DNA of 41,444 bases from a virus (Duplodnaviria; Heunggongvirae; Uroviricota; Caudoviricetes): the IMG/VR virus record IMGVR_UViG_2563366870_000005; one strand, written 5' to 3'. A program made the translations under genes and the position numbers. The notes below the pieces were generated by a model that had not been told where the DNA came from, did no database searches, and worked only from the letters and a program-made list of their open reading frames with translations. This document shows positions 7,902 through 37,873 of the stretch, in pieces. How positions within the stretch are numbered: the first letter of the stretch is position 1; each line of letters opens with the position of its first letter.

Positions 7902-8488
7902 TAGCCGCCTCCCAGTAATGACGCCACGTTACCCGTAATGCTTTTCAGCAGTGAAGTATCTGGAGGCTTTGTGGTTTTGTTGCCGCTATTCTGTACCGCC
8001 GACGTGCTGGCCCCTTCCTTCATGTTGGTTTTATCCGCGACGGTAATCTGCTGTGTCCGGGAGATAAGGACCTCCCTCAGGGTAAGGACGGCGGACAGGA
8101 CATTTTCGGTTGTCTTGTCCGTCGTCACTTCCAGCGCCCGGATCAACATGTTGCTGTACAGCCGTTTACCGGTTACCACATCGAAGGGGATACGGCTTTC
8201 CTGCAAATCCAGTAGCTCCTGATACGTCTGCTGAGGACTCAGGCCGAGCAGGCTGGTAGCCGTCAGGTTACTGGCAAAATCCAGCAATGTGCCGCCACCG
8301 GCGAAACCAACCTCCATCACCACTTCTGACGGTTTTTTATAGGCATGATCAGCGACAGCAGCCCCGACCTCTACCGGATGCTCGGTTATTTCAAGCATAT
8401 CTGTATGCTTCTCTGAAATAACAACACTGGGAACAATCATTCCTATTTTTCTGCTCTGCTGATGAAAAAGTGTAGAGAGAATATCCAC
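7901..8488 (-). CDS. Tail protein following the tape measure
   Basis: 195-aa ORF starting with GTG 8486-8488 overlapping the tape-measure stop; function by position only. Confidence 0.45.
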   Translation of the reverse strand: MDILSTLFHQQSRKIGMIVPSVVISEKHTDMLEITEHPVEVGAAVADHAYKKPSEVVMEVGFAGGGTLLDFASNLTATSLLGLSPQQTYQELLDLQESRIPFDVVTGKRLYSNMLIRALEVTTDKTTENVLSAVLTLREVLISRTQQITVADKTNMKEGASTSAVQNSGNKTTKPPDTSLLKSITGNVASLLGGG

Positions 8489-10476
8489 TAACCCACCCTC
8501 ACCTGATTACTTCGCATGACCTGAGCATTTGCAGACTGTTGCCGACGTGCAACCTCATTACCGACAGCGTGCGGATCTCCGCCACCGTAAATGTGGTAGG
8601 TATTTTGCTGGTTAACCTCTGTCATTTTGCCACTAATTCCCGCCACGGCAGCCTTATTAATCAGCTCTCGAGAATAGATATTTCTTCCATTTTCATGCTG
8701 GATAATGCTGCTCATCAATGCTGACATGGTTTTCGGATCGCTCATATTCAGGGCAGCCCGGGGATCCACTCCCAGTCGTTGCGATACAGCCCTGATATAC
8801 GCAGTTGTGTTGTTATTATCAGAGGCAGGTGCCCAGGTAGAGATAATTTTTTCCACACTGTTTATTCCTCGCCCGGCGTACAACATTAACTGACGAGCAA
8901 GAGCCCGTAATCCATCAAAGGCAGTTTCAAATCTGGCAAATCGCCCGCCCGGGTGTTCAAGAGAAGCCCCCGCCTGACCAGCAAAATTAAGGTTTCCCGG
9001 ATTGTTATTCCGTTCTCCTCGTTTCGTAGCCTGTGCATGTTGTTCCGGCTCATCATCACCAAACCAGCCGCGTACCGTCCGGCCCACACTGCGGGGATCG
9101 AATCCCCAGTGCTCTTTAATCCAGTCGGCAGTACTGTTAGCGCTGTCTGTAACCATCGGCATCGCTGACGGATTTTCGCTGCCCTGATTAAGTATCTGTT
9201 TGCCGATGCTGACGGCATCAGCCCAGCGTCCATCTTTGATAGCGTTGAGCAGGTCGGCGATCATGTTCAGCATTTTGCTGAATTCGCCCATCTGGTCGAT
9301 GAAGTTGCTGAAATCCCACTTCAGGGACCATGATTTGGGGTCAATATTGAGTAGTTTCGCCAGCGCTTTCGCCAGATCGTTAACGGTCGTTTTAAGGTCA
9401 CGAACCATCTTCAGCGCGGCATCGACCTCCGGTTTCCACTTGCCCCAGTCAATCAGGCTGTCGCCGCCTTCCTTCCAGGTCTGATAGTCCTCCCACAGGA
9501 GGGCAATCCCCGCCGCCAGCGCGGTAATGAGGCCAACCGGCGACATCCAGAACGTACTGTTCAGAATGCGCAGCGCAATCGTCAGTGCGCCAAACAGCGA
9601 GATCAACTCCCGCGTTTGCTTATCCAGCGATTGCCACCAGGTGATAAGGCCTGATGTCCCCTCAATCAGTCTGAAGAACAGCCGCCCGATAATATCCCCG
9701 AGCGCCAGAATGCCTTTTATGGCTTTCGTCAGAGTCTGCTCGATACGAGGGAAGTTGTCCAGGATATGGCGGCGCAGGGTGTCCAGCGAACCTGCAAGCC
9801 CACCCGCAAGATTAGAGCCGATTTTGTCACGGGCCATGCCTGCCATCGCGCTAAACTCACGCAAGGAGGTCATAAATTTGTTGGAGCTTCTGGCCGCCTC
9901 GTCAGCATTGAAGCCGATAGCTTTCGCCATTGCGCTGTACTGCCCGGAGAAGCCACCCACACCCCGGCGCATCGCCATAAGGGTATTTTCGTCAATGCCC
10001 AGCATCTGCGCATACTGGTTAGCCCGGTAATACGGCATGCTGCTGAGTTTCTGTCCAACGCCCGTAAAGATAGCGGCCATGTCACGCATGTTACCGCTGG
10101 CATCACGGGTCTGTACGCCCAGGCGATTCAGAAATCCCTCCGCCCCGGGATTATTACGAATAAACCGGGAGAGGTTTTCCAGAGAAGATCGCGCAGCGTC
10201 CACGCTGCCGCCAACCTGCGAAACCGCATAGCCAATAGACTGAATTCCCTGGACTGTCGCGCCGGTGCGCTGTGACGCCCAGTAAAGATTATCCAGACCA
10301 GAGGCGATCTTAGCCGTGAAGGCCACCACGGACAGCGCAGCTCCTTCGACGGCCAGCCCCATTTTGATGACATTTGCAGTTGTACCGGCGAGGACAGAAC
10401 CGAATTTTTTCGCTCCTGCATCATCCACACTGAAGCCAAGCGAGACGAGGAAATCTTTAATAGTCTCGGCGTTCAT
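8488..10476 (-). CDS. Tail tape measure protein
   Basis: Largest tail ORF, follows the tube-chaperone-frameshift arrangement; preferred start ATG 10474-10476 (MNAETIKDFL) with strong SD GGAGAGAGG; track start 10497 is TTG. Confidence 0.8.
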   Translation of the reverse strand: MNAETIKDFLVSLGFSVDDAGAKKFGSVLAGTTANVIKMGLAVEGAALSVVAFTAKIASGLDNLYWASQRTGATVQGIQSIGYAVSQVGGSVDAARSSLENLSRFIRNNPGAEGFLNRLGVQTRDASGNMRDMAAIFTGVGQKLSSMPYYRANQYAQMLGIDENTLMAMRRGVGGFSGQYSAMAKAIGFNADEAARSSNKFMTSLREFSAMAGMARDKIGSNLAGGLAGSLDTLRRHILDNFPRIEQTLTKAIKGILALGDIIGRLFFRLIEGTSGLITWWQSLDKQTRELISLFGALTIALRILNSTFWMSPVGLITALAAGIALLWEDYQTWKEGGDSLIDWGKWKPEVDAALKMVRDLKTTVNDLAKALAKLLNIDPKSWSLKWDFSNFIDQMGEFSKMLNMIADLLNAIKDGRWADAVSIGKQILNQGSENPSAMPMVTDSANSTADWIKEHWGFDPRSVGRTVRGWFGDDEPEQHAQATKRGERNNNPGNLNFAGQAGASLEHPGGRFARFETAFDGLRALARQLMLYAGRGINSVEKIISTWAPASDNNNTTAYIRAVSQRLGVDPRAALNMSDPKTMSALMSSIIQHENGRNIYSRELINKAAVAGISGKMTEVNQQNTYHIYGGGDPHAVGNEVARRQQSANAQVMRSNQVRVG

Positions 10477-11106
10477 TATCCTCTCTCCATTTCTCAATGC
10501 GCCGCTGGTTATCCGCTTTTACCGCCAGATGGTCATTCAAGAGAGCAATGTCGTACAAATCGACAGAGCCATCTTTAAGTGCTGTATAAGGAATTAACCC
10601 GGCGTCAACCGGATTGAGAAGGTAGGACAGCCCGTCCGGCAGGCTGTTAAACGTCAGCCCTGTTGCAGGCTCTGCGTCGTGCTGGTAAGGGGTGTAGGCA
10701 AAAAATTTCCCAGCGAATCGGCGACCACCCGCGCCACCAGCTGCAGCATGACCAGCAGGTCAATATCATCAAACATCAGTTCGCCCTGGGTAAATACCGG
10801 CACCCATCCGTCCATATGACGCCGCGATACCACCGCAAGACAGGGATGAATAATCGCATCGGTGTCATCTTCGGTCAGGGAAGACAGTTCCTCAGCGATA
10901 CGCGGGAGCATGGTTTCAAACACCGGTTTTAACTGCTCTAATTTCACGGTGTCGATTTTGCCATCAGCAGGCAAACGGGAGCGAATGCTCCCGAAATCTG
11001 ACATCATTCCTGCCAGCACCGGCAGAAGTTTGCGGGTCACTTTCAGCTGATCAAAAACGCTGAGTTTTGCCGCGCGATATTTCACGCCTTTAATTTCGAA
11101 TTCCAT
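10457..11106 (-). CDS. Tail assembly chaperone, -1 frameshift-extended product (GT / E+E'-like)
   Basis: After slippage at T TTT TTG (10699-10705) the -1 frame stays open for 80 codons, contains no ATG or GTG, and stops at TAA 10457-10459 just inside the tape-measure start. Confidence 0.55.
10654..11106 (-). CDS. Tail assembly chaperone (lambda G / P2 gpE-like)
   Basis: 150-aa ORF between tail tube and tape measure; contains a slippery heptamer near its 3' end, followed by a long -1 open frame. Confidence 0.7.
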   Translation of the reverse strand: MEFEIKGVKYRAAKLSVFDQLKVTRKLLPVLAGMMSDFGSIRSRLPADGKIDTVKLEQLKPVFETMLPRIAEELSSLTEDDTDAIIHPCLAVVSRRHMDGWVPVFTQGELMFDDIDLLVMLQLVARVVADSLGNFLPTPLTSTTQSLQQG

Positions 11107-11109
11107 GTA

Positions 11110-11550
11110 TTAAAACTCCCCGAGAACCTGGTCAATCTTGCCACAGTCAAACACCCACGGCATCGTATTACCGGTTTTAGCGTTGGCGTTATCCGGTTGT
11201 TTCTGGAACGCAACACTGCGTGCCGTGATGATGTCGCCGCTGACCTTGTTGCGGATCACGATAACGTTATTCCCCCATGTGGCAGAAGACTGGCTCTGTG
11301 CGTTATACGCCAGCGACAATTTTTTATTTGTCGGTGATGTCTTCAGAAGGTTAACGGTAATCGTCCCGCTTTTATCTGCATGGAGACTGTGCATCACTTC
11401 GCCATCAGCACCGATGGTCATGGTGTTTTTAGGACCGCCCATCGCAACCACAATCCCCTCTTCAGAACTTGCCGAACCGTACCCGAGGTCAATCGAACCT
11501 GTCGGCCCGGTCAGCGTCGCAGTGACATCCATAAAAGAATAGGTAGACAT
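11110..11550 (-). CDS. Tail tube protein
   Basis: 146-aa ORF immediately downstream of the sheath gene and upstream of the chaperone, the canonical myovirus order. Confidence 0.65.
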   Translation of the reverse strand: MSTYSFMDVTATLTGPTGSIDLGYGSASSEEGIVVAMGGPKNTMTIGADGEVMHSLHADKSGTITVNLLKTSPTNKKLSLAYNAQSQSSATWGNNVIVIRNKVSGDIITARSVAFQKQPDNANAKTGNTMPWVFDCGKIDQVLGEF

Positions 11551-11560
11551 TCACTTCCCC

Positions 11561-12706
11561 TTAGCGAACAACGTTAATCTGTACGTCAGCGTAATGAACC
11601 GCGCCTGCAAGTTTTATTGCAGCCTGAATCACCGGAGCCTTACGGGCTTCACGTTCTGATTGTGCCTGTTCATCCAGCGGCTGGGCGTATACGTAATAAC
11701 CTTTGGGCAGCGTGTCACCTGATGACAACTGGCCAAGGTCGCCCCCGTTCCATACGCCCGGAGCAATCAGTCCATTCTGAACGGCCTGATCCAGTGATTT
11801 TTCAACATTTGATAACAGTCGGGTAATACCGGCTTCAGTCTGGGGAACTTTCGTGGTGCTGGTATAAAGCAGGTTATAGAGGTTGGTCTGCACATAATTC
11901 TGTAACCAGTCCAGGCCGTGGCGTTCATCAAAGAAATCGCCGTTAGCCATCACTCCCTGCTGGAGGATAGCTGTATCATTCTGGTAGTACACGAACACAT
12001 TGCAGTTTTTTGCATCAAGTGCCGATGCCTGGCTGACTGTCAGTGTTTCATACCCGACACCCGGCTCCTGCTTAAACTTGAGCGTAATCGCGGTATTACT
12101 GCCATTGAAATTAACCGTGAATGCCCGGCCAAATGCAGATAACGCAGCGTATTTATTACCCGATGAATACTGAATAAAACTGCGTGAATATCCGGCGGTT
12201 TTCAGTTTTGATGCCAAATCATCGCTGGATGCAGTCTGCAGGCATTTCTCATCGCTTGTCGTAATCGCCAGAATACGGCTTACAGAAGAGGATTCGATCG
12301 CCGCAGCCACTTTCAGCCAGTCTGCATCCGGAATATCTTCATCGTCTGCAATCCCCAGCCCATACCATGAAGTATAATCGAGCATGGCATTCACAGCCTG
12401 CTCCAGCGTCTCAGGCGTGGCCTGTTCGCTGTCTCCCTTCGTTTTCACCCAACGACCAACAAAAACCTCCTGAGGTTTCGGTGATTGTGAGAAAAACACC
12501 TGCGCAGCCTTATATTCTGGTGATTCCACGCCAAAATCTTTTCCAATATCTTCCGCGGCAGAATAACGGCGAATGCGCTCACTTACCGGAATGATTGTGG
12601 ACGGGCCGAGAATGAGTAATGCACCAAAATTTCGCCCTGATGCTGCACGCGGCGACATGATCACATCAACATTAACAACGTTTGATACAGGCAAGCCCTG
12701 TGCCAT
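11561..12706 (-). CDS. Tail sheath protein
   Basis: 381-aa ORF preceding tube/chaperone/tape measure; size and position typical for a contractile sheath. Confidence 0.65.
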
Positions 12707-14810: not shown

Positions 14811-15752
14811 TTAAATGCCATCAACGTACGAAATGGTTTCTTTGTACACTGGCTCGACTGCACCCAGCTTGCCGTAGTAAGTGACGATCTGATACAGACC
14901 GCGATACTGCACTGGCACGCTCTGAAGCGGAACCAGCGGGTAGCGGACGTATTTTTTATCGTTGGTGTACGCAACCATGCGATCCTTATTCCCCACACCA
15001 CGGCCTTTCAGCCATTTAACCGCGCGGATATTCAGCGGAACACCGTTCTGGTGATAGCTGATGGTGTTGGTCTGAAGGTACGTCAACAGGGACTGGTTAC
15101 CCGCAGATGAAACGATGATGCTGGACAACAGAGCAAACTGCTCAGGCGGGATCAGCAAATCACGCGGAACCACAGAGTAACCGGAAGCGGCCCACGCATC
15201 AGACAGCACCTGGTTAATGCTTGCGCGGATTTCGTCCGGTGTTGAGGTTGCCCACGTTTTGGCAGCGTTGTTGACAGGCACGCCGTCCAGGGTAACAAGA
15301 CCTTTCAGGTTTAATGCGGAATCGCCAACATATACCTGTTCATCGTTATCCATCTGCCATTTCAGTTGCATCCCGTCATACTTCTGCGTATCAATCGGGC
15401 GTCCGATCTGCTGAGCAGCCTGCAATTCTATGACCGTCCAGCCAAGTTCCATCCCCCACAGGTTCAGCGGGTTACCGGATTTGCCGATATCCACGTTCAC
15501 GCCAGCAATAGCGGTTGAGTCTTTGCCTACCCAGTTTTTGCCATTCGGATTTGCACCAGTACCCGCAGCGGCGAAGCTGGTATTCGTCCAGCTGGAAATG
15601 TCATCTGCGATGGAGACATCTTCACGCAACTGAATATCGCGGGTCCAGGTGTACCCCACCAGTGGCAGGTTCAGCGTCTGGTCGAGTCGCTCCAGCTCCC
15701 CGATGAGAAAGGCACCAGAGCTGTCAACGGTTGCCTGATCAAAAGTAATCAT
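14811..15752 (-). CDS. Major capsid protein
   Basis: 313-aa ORF at the end of the scaffold/decoration/capsid trio; ATG 15750-15752; size and order typical. Confidence 0.7.
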   Translation of the reverse strand: MITFDQATVDSSGAFLIGELERLDQTLNLPLVGYTWTRDIQLREDVSIADDISSWTNTSFAAAGTGANPNGKNWVGKDSTAIAGVNVDIGKSGNPLNLWGMELGWTVIELQAAQQIGRPIDTQKYDGMQLKWQMDNDEQVYVGDSALNLKGLVTLDGVPVNNAAKTWATSTPDEIRASINQVLSDAWAASGYSVVPRDLLIPPEQFALLSSIIVSSAGNQSLLTYLQTNTISYHQNGVPLNIRAVKWLKGRGVGNKDRMVAYTNDKKYVRYPLVPLQSVPVQYRGLYQIVTYYGKLGAVEPVYKETISYVDGI

Positions 15753-17508: not shown

Positions 17509-18282
17509 TCAGGCGGGATAAGATTGGGAGGTGGGAAAAACGATTTCTTTATAACAGCGACAATTCGGGAGCTCGCCAGCGTGACCTGTCATGCCGTCAA
17601 GCGTTGGAGGTTTGCCCCATTCGACAAATTTACCTTCCATTTCCCGATGAGAATGCCTGACGTCACCATCTTCGGCTGTACGCCAGATATAACCATTCGA
17701 ACCAATTGACAGCGCACGCGCCTGATCCAGCGCGCCGGTTGCACGTCCAAGTTCAGTACGGGCAATCAGGTCAGCTCTGGACTTTGCTATATCACCCGAT
17801 GCGGCTATTTCTTTAGCAAAATGTTCTGCTCTCCCACCGGTCACAACAGCTTCTGTCGCCCGATTCTGGATGTCGTACACCCTGTCAGCCGCCTCGAGGG
17901 GGAGCGATTTGATGTACTTGACCTGTTCGGCGATGATGGATTGCATCACCTGGCCCACAGGAGCGCTTTCCACAAGATTGCGGAGCTCGCGACTGATGTT
18001 CTTGCTGTGTTGCCGCCAAACTTTCTCGTTCTGCCGGGTTAGGTCCGCAGTAAAGTTTTCCGCGACCTTTGTCGCCCAGGGGGTTATGATTTCACTGTAG
18101 CGTTCCAGCGCCTCAATAATTTCCGTGATACTGTCATTTGAACCATCGTAGCGACCATTTACGATGTCCCCGACCGCCCGCGCTATCCTGCGTAGGCTGG
18201 TTCGATACCGGATTTCCGCCTGACGGTTCCTGCGGTTCGTCATCAGGTTCGCTGATGCCGGGCGGCGCTTCGTCTTCGGCAT
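17509..18282 (-). CDS. Head morphogenesis protein (Mu F / SPP1 gp7-like)
   Basis: 257-aa ORF directly after the portal gene; basic N-terminus; SD GAGGA upstream of ATG 18280-18282; overlaps the portal 3' end by ~149 nt, so start is uncertain. Confidence 0.6.
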   Translation of the reverse strand: MPKTKRRPASANLMTNRRNRQAEIRYRTSLRRIARAVGDIVNGRYDGSNDSITEIIEALERYSEIITPWATKVAENFTADLTRQNEKVWRQHSKNISRELRNLVESAPVGQVMQSIIAEQVKYIKSLPLEAADRVYDIQNRATEAVVTGGRAEHFAKEIAASGDIAKSRADLIARTELGRATGALDQARALSIGSNGYIWRTAEDGDVRHSHREMEGKFVEWGKPPTLDGMTGHAGELPNCRCYKEIVFPTSQSYPA

Positions 18283-19600
18283 TCTCTATGTCCTCGTCGG
18301 TAATGGATGCCCCGATGCCGGTTACGTCAGAATTTTCGCGCAAATCAGTCATAGCGGCTTTCAGTGTCATCAGACCATCACCCAGCGCTGTACTGATTGC
18401 GTTGGTGGTATTTAACGCCACCGTTGAGCGATCGACATCAGACATTTGCCAGAGCGGGTTAAACTCAAACGTGAAATCATCCGGGAGCGGCTTGCCAAGT
18501 TCCGAACGATGCATGATGTCCAGTATCCGCCGCACCGGAAGACGTAAACGCCTCTCCTGCAACGAGCTTACCCGGTCGTAATAGTTGGCAAGGTCTGCAT
18601 CGCCGGTAGAAAATCCCTTCGGGGACTGTCCGAACAACCGCACCAGTGGGATACCAACAGCGCCACTAATCTGTTCTGCAAACTGTGAAAGGATGTCATC
18701 CAGACCACTGAAGCTGTACTGATGGGTTTCAAACTTATCCCGCGAGTCCATGAGCGTCATGCCTTCATTGCTCTGGAACTGTCGAATCAGGTCGATATTC
18801 TTCAGCAACGCTTCATACGCAGGACCACCAAGTGCGATTAGCTCGCGTAGCTTCTCCACGCTGTAGGTACGCAAATGCGCCTTGTAGACCAGCTGCGCCG
18901 CGCCGACAGTAGCGCTGTCGAACGCGGTAAGACGATCCCAGATACGCTCTACAACCGACATTCCCCATTCGTTCTCGGTCATCTTCTGCTGGAATGGCAG
19001 CGTGACGCCATCAAAGCGAATCAGGCGACTGTGATGAATGCGCCAGGCAGGAATTCCCGTTGCTGTGGTCACCACATCGTAAAACTCAGGTTTACCCAGG
19101 TCCGGCCCCATATCTTTAATGCGGCGGGTCAGTACCGGGTCGATCATCCAGCGGTCGAGCGGGAGAATCCCCTTAAACTTGCCCTTACCGATGGTTTCGG
19201 GTCGCAGCGGGGTCATTGGTGCCTGCCCCTCAATCATGATGAAACCCACCGCGCCGCCGTAGAGGCGCGACCATTTCAGCACGTCGTTCAGCGCATCCCA
19301 GATTTGCAACTCATCCAGTTGTGATTCGAGAATGCCACGATCTTTTGCATCAATTTCCGACGTGATGCGAATGCCTTTGCGGGTCATATCATCCGGGATA
19401 GCATCGACCGCTTCGCCGATGATCCAGGACGAACGATAGGACCATTCCACCAGCATGCGGTTACGACTGGTGAAATTAGCCCGGTAGGTGGATGCTGAGT
19501 GCTGGTTAGGTGTCTGCATCCCTACGCGGGCAATAAAATTCTCATAACCATCAGCTGTGGCCTGCGCAGTTCGCCGCAGGGCTTGTTTGTTTCGTGCCAT
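18134..19600 (-). CDS. Portal protein
   Basis: 488-aa ORF immediately downstream of the large terminase with a 1-nt stop/start overlap; acidic C-terminal tail. Confidence 0.75.
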   Translation of the reverse strand: MARNKQALRRTAQATADGYENFIARVGMQTPNQHSASTYRANFTSRNRMLVEWSYRSSWIIGEAVDAIPDDMTRKGIRITSEIDAKDRGILESQLDELQIWDALNDVLKWSRLYGGAVGFIMIEGQAPMTPLRPETIGKGKFKGILPLDRWMIDPVLTRRIKDMGPDLGKPEFYDVVTTATGIPAWRIHHSRLIRFDGVTLPFQQKMTENEWGMSVVERIWDRLTAFDSATVGAAQLVYKAHLRTYSVEKLRELIALGGPAYEALLKNIDLIRQFQSNEGMTLMDSRDKFETHQYSFSGLDDILSQFAEQISGAVGIPLVRLFGQSPKGFSTGDADLANYYDRVSSLQERRLRLPVRRILDIMHRSELGKPLPDDFTFEFNPLWQMSDVDRSTVALNTTNAISTALGDGLMTLKAAMTDLRENSDVTGIGASITDEDIENAEDEAPPGISEPDDEPQEPSGGNPVSNQPTQDSAGGRGHRKWSLRWFK

Positions 19601-31500: not shown

Positions 31501-33003
31501 GTGTCAACTTTGAGAATCGGTATGGAAATCCAAGAGTTTGTAAGTCACTATAAAAACCACCCTGTTCTATTCATTGGAACAGGATTTAGCCTACGGTATC
31601 TAGAAAACTCATTTAGCTGGGATGGTCTTCTTTTGAGTGTCGCAATGGAACTAACCGGTAATGCTGAGTTTTACTACGATTTGAAAGCTGAAAGCCTAGA
31701 AGGTGACGACTATCGATATGATATCTTAGCTACAAAACTTGAAGATATTTTTAATAAAAAGCTGGCAGAAGATCGTAACGGTAAGTTCAAAGACATCAAT
31801 GATGTTTTCTATGAGCACATGAAAAAAGGAAAAAAACTAAGTCGATTCAAAATTTATTTAACTTCAATACTTAAAGACCTAAAGATAAAAGAGTCAATGA
31901 TGGAGGAAATAAACAGCTTAATAAAAACAAGAAAAAACATAGGCTCCATCATTACAACAAACTACGACCAACTCGTAGAGAACATCTTCGAATTTAACCC
32001 ACTGATTGGTAACAACATTCTTTTAAGTAACCCATACGGTTCAGTTTACAAAATACATGGCTGTGTTAGTGATCCTAACAACATAATTATCACAGGTGAA
32101 GACTACGCAAACTTCGACAATAAATATGAGTTAATTCGCGCTCAATTACTCTCAATATTCATACACAACCCTATCATATTTATAGGGTATAGTATTAGCG
32201 ATAAAAACATTAAGTACTTATTAAAAACCATATTCTCATACGTTGACTTAAATACCGAACTTGCAAAAAGGATAAAAGATAATTTTCTTTTGGTTGAATA
32301 CGAAAAAGACAGCATGTCAACTGAAATTACGGAGCATGACATAGATATAGAAGGCATGTCTATCATAAGAATAAACAAAATAAAAACAAACAATTACAAA
32401 GCTGTATATGATGCCATCTCGGGACTAGTTTTGCCAGTATCCGCAATGGACATAAGAAAGGTTCAAAAAGTTTGGAGTACCATCAAAAGTGGTGGTGAGA
32501 TAAAGGTTAAAATTACAGAAAATTTAGATGAACTTCGCAATGATGAAATGGTCATTGCTGTTGGTTCAGAAAGAACCGTACAATATGTTTATCAAACAAA
32601 ATCTGAAATGATACAGAACTATTTTAAAATAGTTGACGAAGCAAACTCTCAGCTTATCGCATTACTGAATAAGCAAACCATAGCTAATAGCGAACACTTT
32701 CCAATATACGCTTTTAGTTCTATCTGCCCTGAACTAGAAAATACCGAGACATACAGAAAACGGCAGCTAGATAAAATCATTGGTAACCTTTCTCGAATTA
32801 AAACATGTAAGAGTGAGGCTGTGTCTATTGATGAAATACTAAAAGAAACGAAAGAGTATAAAGTTGCTAACACGATTATGTATTGCGTACTAAACGATAC
32901 TATTTCATTGAAACAACTACGAGATTATTTAACAAAACCAGGGCATAAAATTGATACCCAATACAGGCGACTTTTATGCTTGTATGATTATTTATCATAT
33001 TAA
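31501..33003 (+). CDS. SIR2-like (ThsA-like NADase) domain protein with uncharacterised C-terminal domain; candidate anti-phage defence gene
   Basis: N-terminal motifs in ThsA order: VLFIGTGFS, IITTNYDQLVE, KIHGCVSD, IIFIGYSISDKN. GTG start with SD AGAGG 6 nt upstream. Lys/Asn/Ile-rich and visibly AT-rich compared with neighbours; own terminator. Confidence 0.7.
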   Translation: MSTLRIGMEIQEFVSHYKNHPVLFIGTGFSLRYLENSFSWDGLLLSVAMELTGNAEFYYDLKAESLEGDDYRYDILATKLEDIFNKKLAEDRNGKFKDINDVFYEHMKKGKKLSRFKIYLTSILKDLKIKESMMEEINSLIKTRKNIGSIITTNYDQLVENIFEFNPLIGNNILLSNPYGSVYKIHGCVSDPNNIIITGEDYANFDNKYELIRAQLLSIFIHNPIIFIGYSISDKNIKYLLKTIFSYVDLNTELAKRIKDNFLLVEYEKDSMSTEITEHDIDIEGMSIIRINKIKTNNYKAVYDAISGLVLPVSAMDIRKVQKVWSTIKSGGEIKVKITENLDELRNDEMVIAVGSERTVQYVYQTKSEMIQNYFKIVDEANSQLIALLNKQTIANSEHFPIYAFSSICPELENTETYRKRQLDKIIGNLSRIKTCKSEAVSIDEILKETKEYKVANTIMYCVLNDTISLKQLRDYLTKPGHKIDTQYRRLLCLYDYLSY

Positions 33004-36943: not shown

Positions 36944-37873
36944 TTATGGGTTAGGTAATGCACGATTATTAAAATTATCAATAATTTGCAACGCCGCCGT
37001 TTGTCCGCCAGCCAATAGCCCTGCTTTACTCAGAAGGTATTTAGGGAATTTGGTTGGTAAATAAACCGCACGAAGCCAGTGCCTGAATACAGCTAAAGCA
37101 TTATCAGGGTATGCATAGACCATTTGGGGATTACTTGCGGATTGGTTGAATTCTTCAGGGTAATAGTGCTGGCAGCGTTGTCTTGGGCCAATCGTCGCAT
37201 CGTAGTTGGAAGAAGACCAGTAGCGAGCCCAATGCTGGCCCACACTGATATCCGGTACAGTGTACTGGTTTACTGCTAATCCAGCATGGATGAGGTCTAC
37301 CATTAAACCGGCAATTTCATTGAATACAATGAAGTGTCCAGCAGGAACCGAGTTTGCCCCATGCATGATTGACACACGAGAGTGGTAATGACGCCAAGGG
37401 TCATCAGGTATGTAGCCAAGCGCTGTATAGATGTAACCACGCATACCCGCACGGGATAGCTCGCGGAAAAACTGTAGCGCAGTAGGAGTTGCAGCACTTT
37501 GAGATACAAATGCGTAGAACTCCAGAATAGCCATACAGACTACTTCTGGGTACGCATAATGGACTGACCCATCTTTGTTGATTGGGATATAAAGAGTCGG
37601 CTCATTATATTGCTCACGCTGTAAATATGAGCTGATAAACTCCATACGCCCTCGAGCGAAAACTCCGTGGCGGAAGCTCTCTTCCCACTCTCGAGAAATA
37701 TCCGCGATATTACTGCGATGCACCCCGCAAATCCTGGCCAGCCCATTTTGCGTAAGGTAGGAGATCCCGTTCTGAAGAACCCCCATTTCTATTTCGTTAA
37801 AAACCCCCTCGGTACTAACACCTAAGTCCAGTACTTGTTGGGGTGCGGGTTGCTGACCACCAAATTCACTCAT
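36944..37873 (-). CDS. Hypothetical HTH-domain protein, opposite strand to flanking genes
   Basis: 309-aa ORF with ATG and SD AAGGA; N-terminal HTH-like motif (LTQNGLARICGVHRSNIADI) plus ~220-aa unrecognised C-terminal domain; convergent with the methyltransferase (stops 2 bp apart). Confidence 0.6.
   Translation of the reverse strand: MSEFGGQQPAPQQVLDLGVSTEGVFNEIEMGVLQNGISYLTQNGLARICGVHRSNIADISREWEESFRHGVFARGRMEFISSYLQREQYNEPTLYIPINKDGSVHYAYPEVVCMAILEFYAFVSQSAATPTALQFFRELSRAGMRGYIYTALGYIPDDPWRHYHSRVSIMHGANSVPAGHFIVFNEIAGLMVDLIHAGLAVNQYTVPDISVGQHWARYWSSSNYDATIGPRQRCQHYYPEEFNQSASNPQMVYAYPDNALAVFRHWLRAVYLPTKFPKYLLSKAGLLAGGQTAALQIIDNFNNRALPNP

Follow-up and report, generated by a model that had tools for sequence, protein, structure and literature searches.

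Tail assembly chaperone genes joined by a -1 ribosomal frameshift have been described in phage lambda (gpG/gpGT), from the work of Levin et al. (1993) and Xu, Hendrix and Duda (2004, 2013, 2014) summarised in PMC5009743, and in phage P2 (E/E+E'), for which the passage on P2 in PMC3091744 reports a shift at TTTTTTG with no structure downstream. The P2 facts (Christie et al. 2002) are given here second-hand, as described in PMC3091744. The present analysis concerns the 41,444-nucleotide (nt) virus record IMGVR_UViG_2563366870_000005 (Caudoviricetes), referred to as the window, i.e., the whole stretch of DNA analysed, and within it a chaperone gene of 150 amino acids (aa) carrying the heptamer T TTT TTG near its 3' end. 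From the sequence evidence, it is highly probable that ribosomes undergo a programmed -1 frameshift at this heptamer, of the lambda G/GT (P2 E/E+E') type. The G/GT-type recoding arrangement had been proposed in the initial annotation and is supported by a coding -1 frame, selection on the run of six T (T6), a switch of the frame under selection, the lack of an independent start, and the precedents of P2 and Klebsiella phage Mulock. All coordinates are window positions; the frameshift locus is on the minus strand, for which the initial annotation gave no strand.

The locus resembles P2 in the identical TTTTTTG heptamer and in gene order, both being myovirus tail operons (FETUD in P2) with the chaperone gene just upstream of the tape measure gene. 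However, no sequence-family relationship was detected: P2 E appeared in no search result, and the protein pair found here is Phage_TAC_15 with DUF6889. The products are 91/142 aa in P2 and 150/216 aa here, and the P2 shift is reported in the same passage of PMC3091744 as an established translational frameshift, whereas the prophage site is known from sequence alone. The lambda site is G GGA AAG, in contrast to the present locus, where the similar G GGA AAT can be lost and conservation falls on T TTT TTG. Lambda is a siphovirus and the prophage studied here a myovirus, and binding partners are proposed here only by analogy.

A true homologue was found in Klebsiella phage Mulock (CPT_Mulock_014/015, GenBank MN098327), with 58% aa identity in the chaperone, the same sequence GGGAAATTTTTTG, and an extension that is likewise of DUF6889 type and stops at the tape-measure start; the two loci differ in the 0-frame tail and linker sequences. 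In its GenBank record a joined 'tape measure chaperone frameshift product' is annotated at the homologous GGGAAATTTTTTG; this annotation is computational only, and the Mulock genome paper makes no mention of a frameshift. A poly-T (GTTTTT) -1 frameshift has also been proposed for the chaperone genes of Vandenendeviridae/Andersonviridae myoviruses (PMC12846349). Pseudomonas phages E217 and KPP10 gave their names to the families PF11863 and PF11681, which the prophage sheath and tube proteins match; the related myoviruses with the proposed poly-T site represent other genera and hosts and are likened to the present locus by the poly-T site, not by chaperone homology. Compared with these systems, the locus appears to be a routine G/GT-type recoding site, with every feature that can be checked in silico present except a downstream structure, which is optional.

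The 150-aa open reading frame (ORF) is a tail assembly chaperone (TAC) according to Pfam, PHROG and its predicted fold, which is that of a TAC. It matched Phage_TAC_15 (PF21822) with 109 bits (E = 2.6e-31; cutoff 22 bits) and phrog_1688 with E = 6e-65. The gene (11106..10654) sits between those of the tail tube (11550..11110) and the tape measure protein (10476..8488), all on the minus strand. The locus comprises the following elements:

10654..11106, minus strand: tail assembly chaperone, 0-frame product of 150 aa ('G'-like or TAC-N form), identified by Pfam and PHROG
10699..10711, minus strand: 13-nt tract G GGA AAT TTT TTG with three overlapping in-register heptamers
10699..10705, minus strand: slippery heptamer T TTT TTG in the X XXY YYZ register, the proposed -1 shift site
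10657..10698, minus strand: dual-coding overlap of the 14 codons of the 0-frame tail with the start of the -1 extension
10457..10698, minus strand: -1-frame extension of 80 codons plus TAA, putative 'T'-like domain (open frame; phrog_4364, E = 2e-23)
10475..10591, minus strand: match to DUF6889 (PF21829) at residues 173-211 of the predicted fusion (Pfam E = 9.1e-20, 70.6 bits)

The 3' end of the chaperone gene reads ...GAT TCG CTG GGA AAT TTT TTG CCT ... GGC TGA, with the TGA at 10656..10654. The slippery heptamer that the initial annotation had placed 14 codons ahead of the chaperone stop was found in register at 10705..10699, with 14 sense codons between it and the TGA. It is the last of the three overlapping heptamers of the tract (G GGA AAT / A AAT TTT / T TTT TTG). 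In-register X XXY YYZ heptamers numbered 36 in the 41 long ORFs of the window, and only at the three overlapping ones of this tract does the -1 frame outlast the 0-frame stop by more than 30 codons. Open -1 runs of at least 82 codons were observed at only 1.9% of the in-frame positions of these ORFs.

Read from 10705, the -1 frame gives FF and 80 further codons up to the stop TAA at 10459..10457; the open stretch begins at 10759 and comprises about 100 codons. This reading bears out two further claims of the initial annotation, namely that the -1 frame stays open for 80 codons without ATG or GTG and that it ends just past the tape-measure start, the TAA lying 17 nt beyond the ATG at 10476. TTG codons occur in this frame only at 10558 and 10540, deep within the conserved domain. 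The tape-measure ATG (10476..10474), which is the identical start in RefSeq, and its Shine-Dalgarno sequence GGAGAGAGG fall within the 3' end of the -1 ORF. The arrangement is that of an overlapping -1 ORF with no initiation signal of its own, reaching about the start of the tape measure gene. The extension matches both DUF6889 (Pfam cutoff 23.9 bits; match coordinates mapped from the codon table) and phrog_4364 and is therefore real coding sequence, and the predicted fusion product has 216 aa.

From this evidence, DUF6889 (PF21829; phrog_4364, 'unknown function') appears to be the frameshift-encoded C-terminal 'T' domain of Phage_TAC_15 chaperones, which is a modestly new point; no mention of DUF6889 was found in the literature. 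The AlphaFold model of the extension (predicted local distance difference test, pLDDT, 56.8) showed 21 disordered residues, then short helices and a long C-terminal helix, and is evidently too weak a model for a fold search; a sequence search of the PDB with the fusion gave no match. The 0-frame tail (residues 135-150, i.e., 16 residues past the slip site) was predicted to be disordered, with pLDDT values of 32-47.

For comparative analysis, one genome per species was scanned, yielding 60 loci from other Enterobacterales (Enterobacter, Citrobacter, Pantoea, Photorhabdus, Erwinia, Serratia, Rahnella, and others), in 58 of which the chaperone gene is complete; aa identity to the window's chaperone is 52-85%. 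T6 was scored in 59 loci, including the window and phage Mulock and leaving out L090, in which the chaperone is disrupted. The run was kept in register in all 59 (TTTTTTG in 57, TTTTTTA in one, and TTTTTTC in one), and exactly six T were present in 80 of 80 close viral-contig relatives. Given the codon usage of the same genes, the expected frequency of T6 for Asn-Phe-Leu is 0.026, against an observed 58 of 58 unique genes; a final T is likewise found in the codon when Gly, Ser or Asp takes the place of Asn. A second T6 was not found elsewhere in the 58 unique homologous chaperone genes. Both the shift site and the two-frame arrangement are conserved in diverged homologues beyond what the protein sequence needs.

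In 57 of the 59 loci, no stop interrupts the -1 frame between the slip site and the '...WREDNER*' end at the tape-measure start. Nucleotide periodicity changes at the same place: the least conserved position is the third position of the 0 frame 5' of T6 (0.71), and it is the third position of the -1 frame both in the 14-codon overlap (0.66) and in the downstream region coding in the -1 frame only (0.585). Within the overlap, translation in the -1 frame gives a mean pairwise aa identity of 0.60 over 49 loci, compared with 0.39 for the 0 frame. These values indicate that purifying selection leaves the 0 frame and takes up the -1 frame immediately 3' of T6, and since periodicity and aa conservation both switch there, selection tracks the path of a frame-changing ribosome.

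The hexamer GGGAAA immediately 5' of T6 is kept in 51 of the 59 loci and replaced in eight (by CGGAAA, GGGCGG, GGGCAG, GGGTGA or TGGAAA), and the two upstream heptamers are therefore dispensable. Locus L134 carries a -1-frame TGA directly 5' of T6, between G GGA AAT and T6, which pins the shift to T TTT TTG. The lambda-like G GGA AAT was ruled out as an essential shift site by these two observations, and the comparison points to T TTT TTG as the essential site.

Several individual loci deviate from the common pattern. The -1 ORF is truncated after 59 codons in L111, and the chaperone ORF is interrupted at codon 47 in L090; both are probably degenerate prophages. Chaperone regions of the enterobacterial type, with 68-78% identity, were found under the names Chryseobacterium sp. 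18061 (L094), Bacillus sp. AFS073361 (L140), and Elizabethkingia phage EKP1 (H20), which suggests contamination or mislabelled hosts rather than cross-phylum transfer. A prophage copy 96% identical to the window (L143, 1897..1912, Logan SRR23924998 contig) has seven T (T7) at the slip site, joining chaperone and DUF6889 in one frame; the resulting 213-aa protein (P0004, cluster of 16 member sequences) is the only fused protein in the databases and comes from this T7 DNA variant. The T7 may be a homopolymer sequencing error or a natural 'fusion-only' mutant. In-frame fusion was not used as 'Rosetta stone' evidence, P0004 being the only case and its T7 indel maybe a sequencing error.

According to the proposed mechanism, most ribosomes would pass T TTT TTG unshifted and end 14 codons on, giving the 150-aa chaperone. 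A minority, with UUU bound by tRNA-Phe in the P site and the A site either occupied by tRNA-Leu on UUG or empty, would slip back by one base and would then read 80 codons in the -1 frame and end just inside the tape measure gene. The tandem slip would give the junction peptide SLGNFLAYTPYQHDAEPATGL and the P-site slip ...GNFFAYTP..., so that the junction residue could be Leu or Phe. The 216-aa fusion would be laid out as the chaperone core, a linker of about 35 residues, and the DUF6889 domain. By analogy with lambda, the shared N-terminal part may coat or bind the tape measure protein, the rare C-terminal extension may recruit the tube protein and thereby start tail polymerisation, and neither form of the chaperone would be retained in the virion. 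The tube protein (11110..11550) is likely to be the partner of the T-like domain, a role taken from the gpGT/gpV model of lambda (PMC5009743). An RNA stimulator is apparently not involved, and the efficiency is expected to be low, as is probably required.

A search for a downstream stimulatory stem-loop or pseudoknot, suggested in the initial annotation, revealed no conserved structure, and stimulatory RNA was rejected as a feature of the locus. The predicted fold of the 123 nt that begin at the slip site was no better than those of shuffled sequences (z = -0.87), and RNAalifold on 34 diverged loci gave -1 kcal/mol and 0 covarying pairs; local hairpins in the window start at least 21 nt past the heptamer and are not conserved. 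No Shine-Dalgarno-like stimulator was seen by eye 6-17 nt upstream in the 24 nt inspected; GGGA (-6..-3) and GGTGG (-24..-20) were rejected as such, being outside the 6-17 nt range of Sharma et al. UUG is moreover a 'heterogeneous' A-site codon ranked as a poor shifter by Sharma et al. (PMC4066793). These results were counted on the side against a programmed ribosomal shift, and with neither type of stimulator present its efficiency cannot be argued from stimulators. Further points on the same side are that the G at position 7 of the heptamer is conserved but constrained by both frames, belonging to a Leu codon in the 0 frame and an Ala codon in the -1 frame, so that it does not independently favour the heptamer over a plain T run; that the related loci share ancestry, so 59 of 59 does not stand for 59 independent events; and that the support for this phage and its family is at the sequence level. 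The missing downstream structure is no argument against frameshifting, however, as such structures are optional and not defining for phage chaperone sites; the result agrees with P2-like phages, in which the identical heptamer is reported to have no structure after it (PMC3091744). U_UUG-type motifs are weakly shifty in E. coli (PMC4066793) and the GT:G ratio needed in lambda is about 1:30 (PMC5009743); by this analogy, weak shiftiness would fit a low long:short ratio.

The same fusion protein could be produced by transcriptional slippage, if RNA polymerase added an extra U on T6 and some mRNAs thereby fused the frames. The conserved element is indeed a homopolymer, conservation at synonymous sites would favour T6 under either mechanism, and the frame-fusing T7 variant in one public assembly indicates some susceptibility of the run to indels. 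For T4-like chaperones, a mechanism other than a ribosomal one has reportedly been proposed, going by the title of a 2022 work of Vladimirov et al. cited in PMC12846349. Productive slippage by E. coli RNA polymerase generally requires about 8-9 or more A/T, whereas the run is never longer than six T in the 59 loci and the 80 close relatives and is always placed in the X XXY YYZ register. Together with the description of the identical P2 heptamer as a translational frameshift in the passage cited above (PMC3091744), this leaves transcriptional slippage very unlikely. A broader reading, in which the tract G GGA AAT TTT TTG acts as a stimulator-free multi-site slippery tract or T6 works via RNA-polymerase slippage at an unusually short run, is also rather unlikely. 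With multiple sites, ribosomes would have up to three successive chances to slip, with the junctions ...LGK-FFA, ...GNF-FA and ...NFL-A, and the short:long chaperone ratio would depend on the summed probability, not on RNA structure.

That DUF6889 is an independent gene (57 aa from CTG 10630), translated either from an initiation site of its own or through coupling to the end of chaperone translation, with no fusion formed, would agree with the stand-alone ORFs of 46-78 aa called by the Prokaryotic Genome Annotation Pipeline (PGAP) and other pipelines, and with the location of the Pfam core (fusion residues 173-211) entirely downstream of the 0-frame stop. The annotated starts nevertheless fall at six different positions, with a Leu codon often rendered as 'M', and the window has no ATG or GTG in the -1 frame. 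In a scan of 57 unique loci that began at the upstream -1 stop and reached 10 codons into DUF6889, ATG, GTG and TTG were all absent in 30, and the remaining loci contained scattered start candidates, nearly all without a Shine-Dalgarno sequence; an independent start was rejected on finding no conserved start codon or Shine-Dalgarno sequence. The -1 frame is also open and under purifying selection from T6, well 5' of any proposed start, and the conservation of T6 would be left without a reason, which makes a separate gene highly improbable. An evolutionary relic or chance open frame with no recoding, where only the 150-aa chaperone matters, could appeal to the abundance of in-register heptamers in the window and to the intrinsic weakness of the T TTT TTG motif. 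It is incompatible with the Pfam and PHROG matches, the conservation across genera and the frame-switch signature, none of which suits a non-coding frame, and is effectively refuted.

The proposed ribosomal frameshift bears mainly on annotation, where its practical value lies, and gives DUF6889 a role. RefSeq/PGAP carries the stand-alone ORF of 57 aa with a CTG start at window position 10630; in phages SEN34 and YP3 the 177-nt stretch is unannotated, and a joined frameshift coding sequence was present only in Mulock among the annotations compared (RefSeq, SEN34, YP3, and Mulock). Many NCBI entries for the stand-alone ORF (window 10460..10630; P0122-P0145) are named 'NTP pyrophosphohydrolase', probably a propagated misannotation of the frameshift extension. 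Under the frameshift reading, the stand-alone 'DUF6889 family protein' and 'NTP pyrophosphohydrolase' records with CTG or ad hoc starts are artefacts, and many sequences are affected. The locus would add one more tail-chaperone frameshift, with the heptamer of P2, that current annotation misses in this phage group; concepts are unchanged.

The window contains a complete myovirus morphogenesis operon on the minus strand, with the chaperone locus inside it, in the order small and large terminase, portal, protease/scaffold, major head, neck, sheath, tube, the 150-aa ORF, tape measure, and baseplate. The genes used for orientation are as follows:

15752..14811, minus strand: major head gene
12706..11561, minus strand: sheath gene (PF11863 match)
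11110..11550, minus strand: tail tube protein (PF11681, Pfam E = 9e-61)
8488..10476, minus strand: tape measure protein of 662 aa (phrog_2276 'tail length tape measure protein', E = 8e-283)

The remainder of the window encodes a CI-like repressor, replication genes, and an integrase, and because these accompany the morphogenesis operon, the window is essentially one temperate prophage, of E. coli. Of 5426 complete E. coli genomes, 368 contained a match to the region. The isolated phages nearest to it in nucleotide identity are vB_EcoM-606R2-type phages (98%), Yersinia phage YP3 (84%), Salmonella phage SEN34 of the genus Brunovirus (76%), and Klebsiella phage Mulock (68%).

In its C-terminal third (residues ~474-649), the tape measure protein matched phrog_873 and phrog_7182 (endolysin / 'tail injection transglycosylase'), and in some genomes its RefSeq name is 'lytic transglycosylase'; from these matches it would seem to be a tape measure that incorporates a domain for peptidoglycan degradation. 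An overlap of 149 nt (18134..18282, minus strand) exists between the portal ORF (19600..18134) and the head-morphogenesis ORF in its longest form (18282..17509), and the actual start of the head-morphogenesis gene is probably further in than 18282. A 500-aa SIR2-domain protein (31501..33003, plus strand) is encoded between the genes for a single-stranded DNA-binding protein and DNA polymerase A. It matched PDC-S25, a candidate defence family in PADLOC (E = 4e-158), gave a weaker match to the SIR2 domain of ThsA, and is likely, by these matches, to be a prophage-borne anti-phage defence gene. Near the integrase end, a 309-aa protein (36944..37873, minus strand) matched the PADLOC model of BstA (E = 2.5e-110), an abortive-infection defence protein encoded by prophages.

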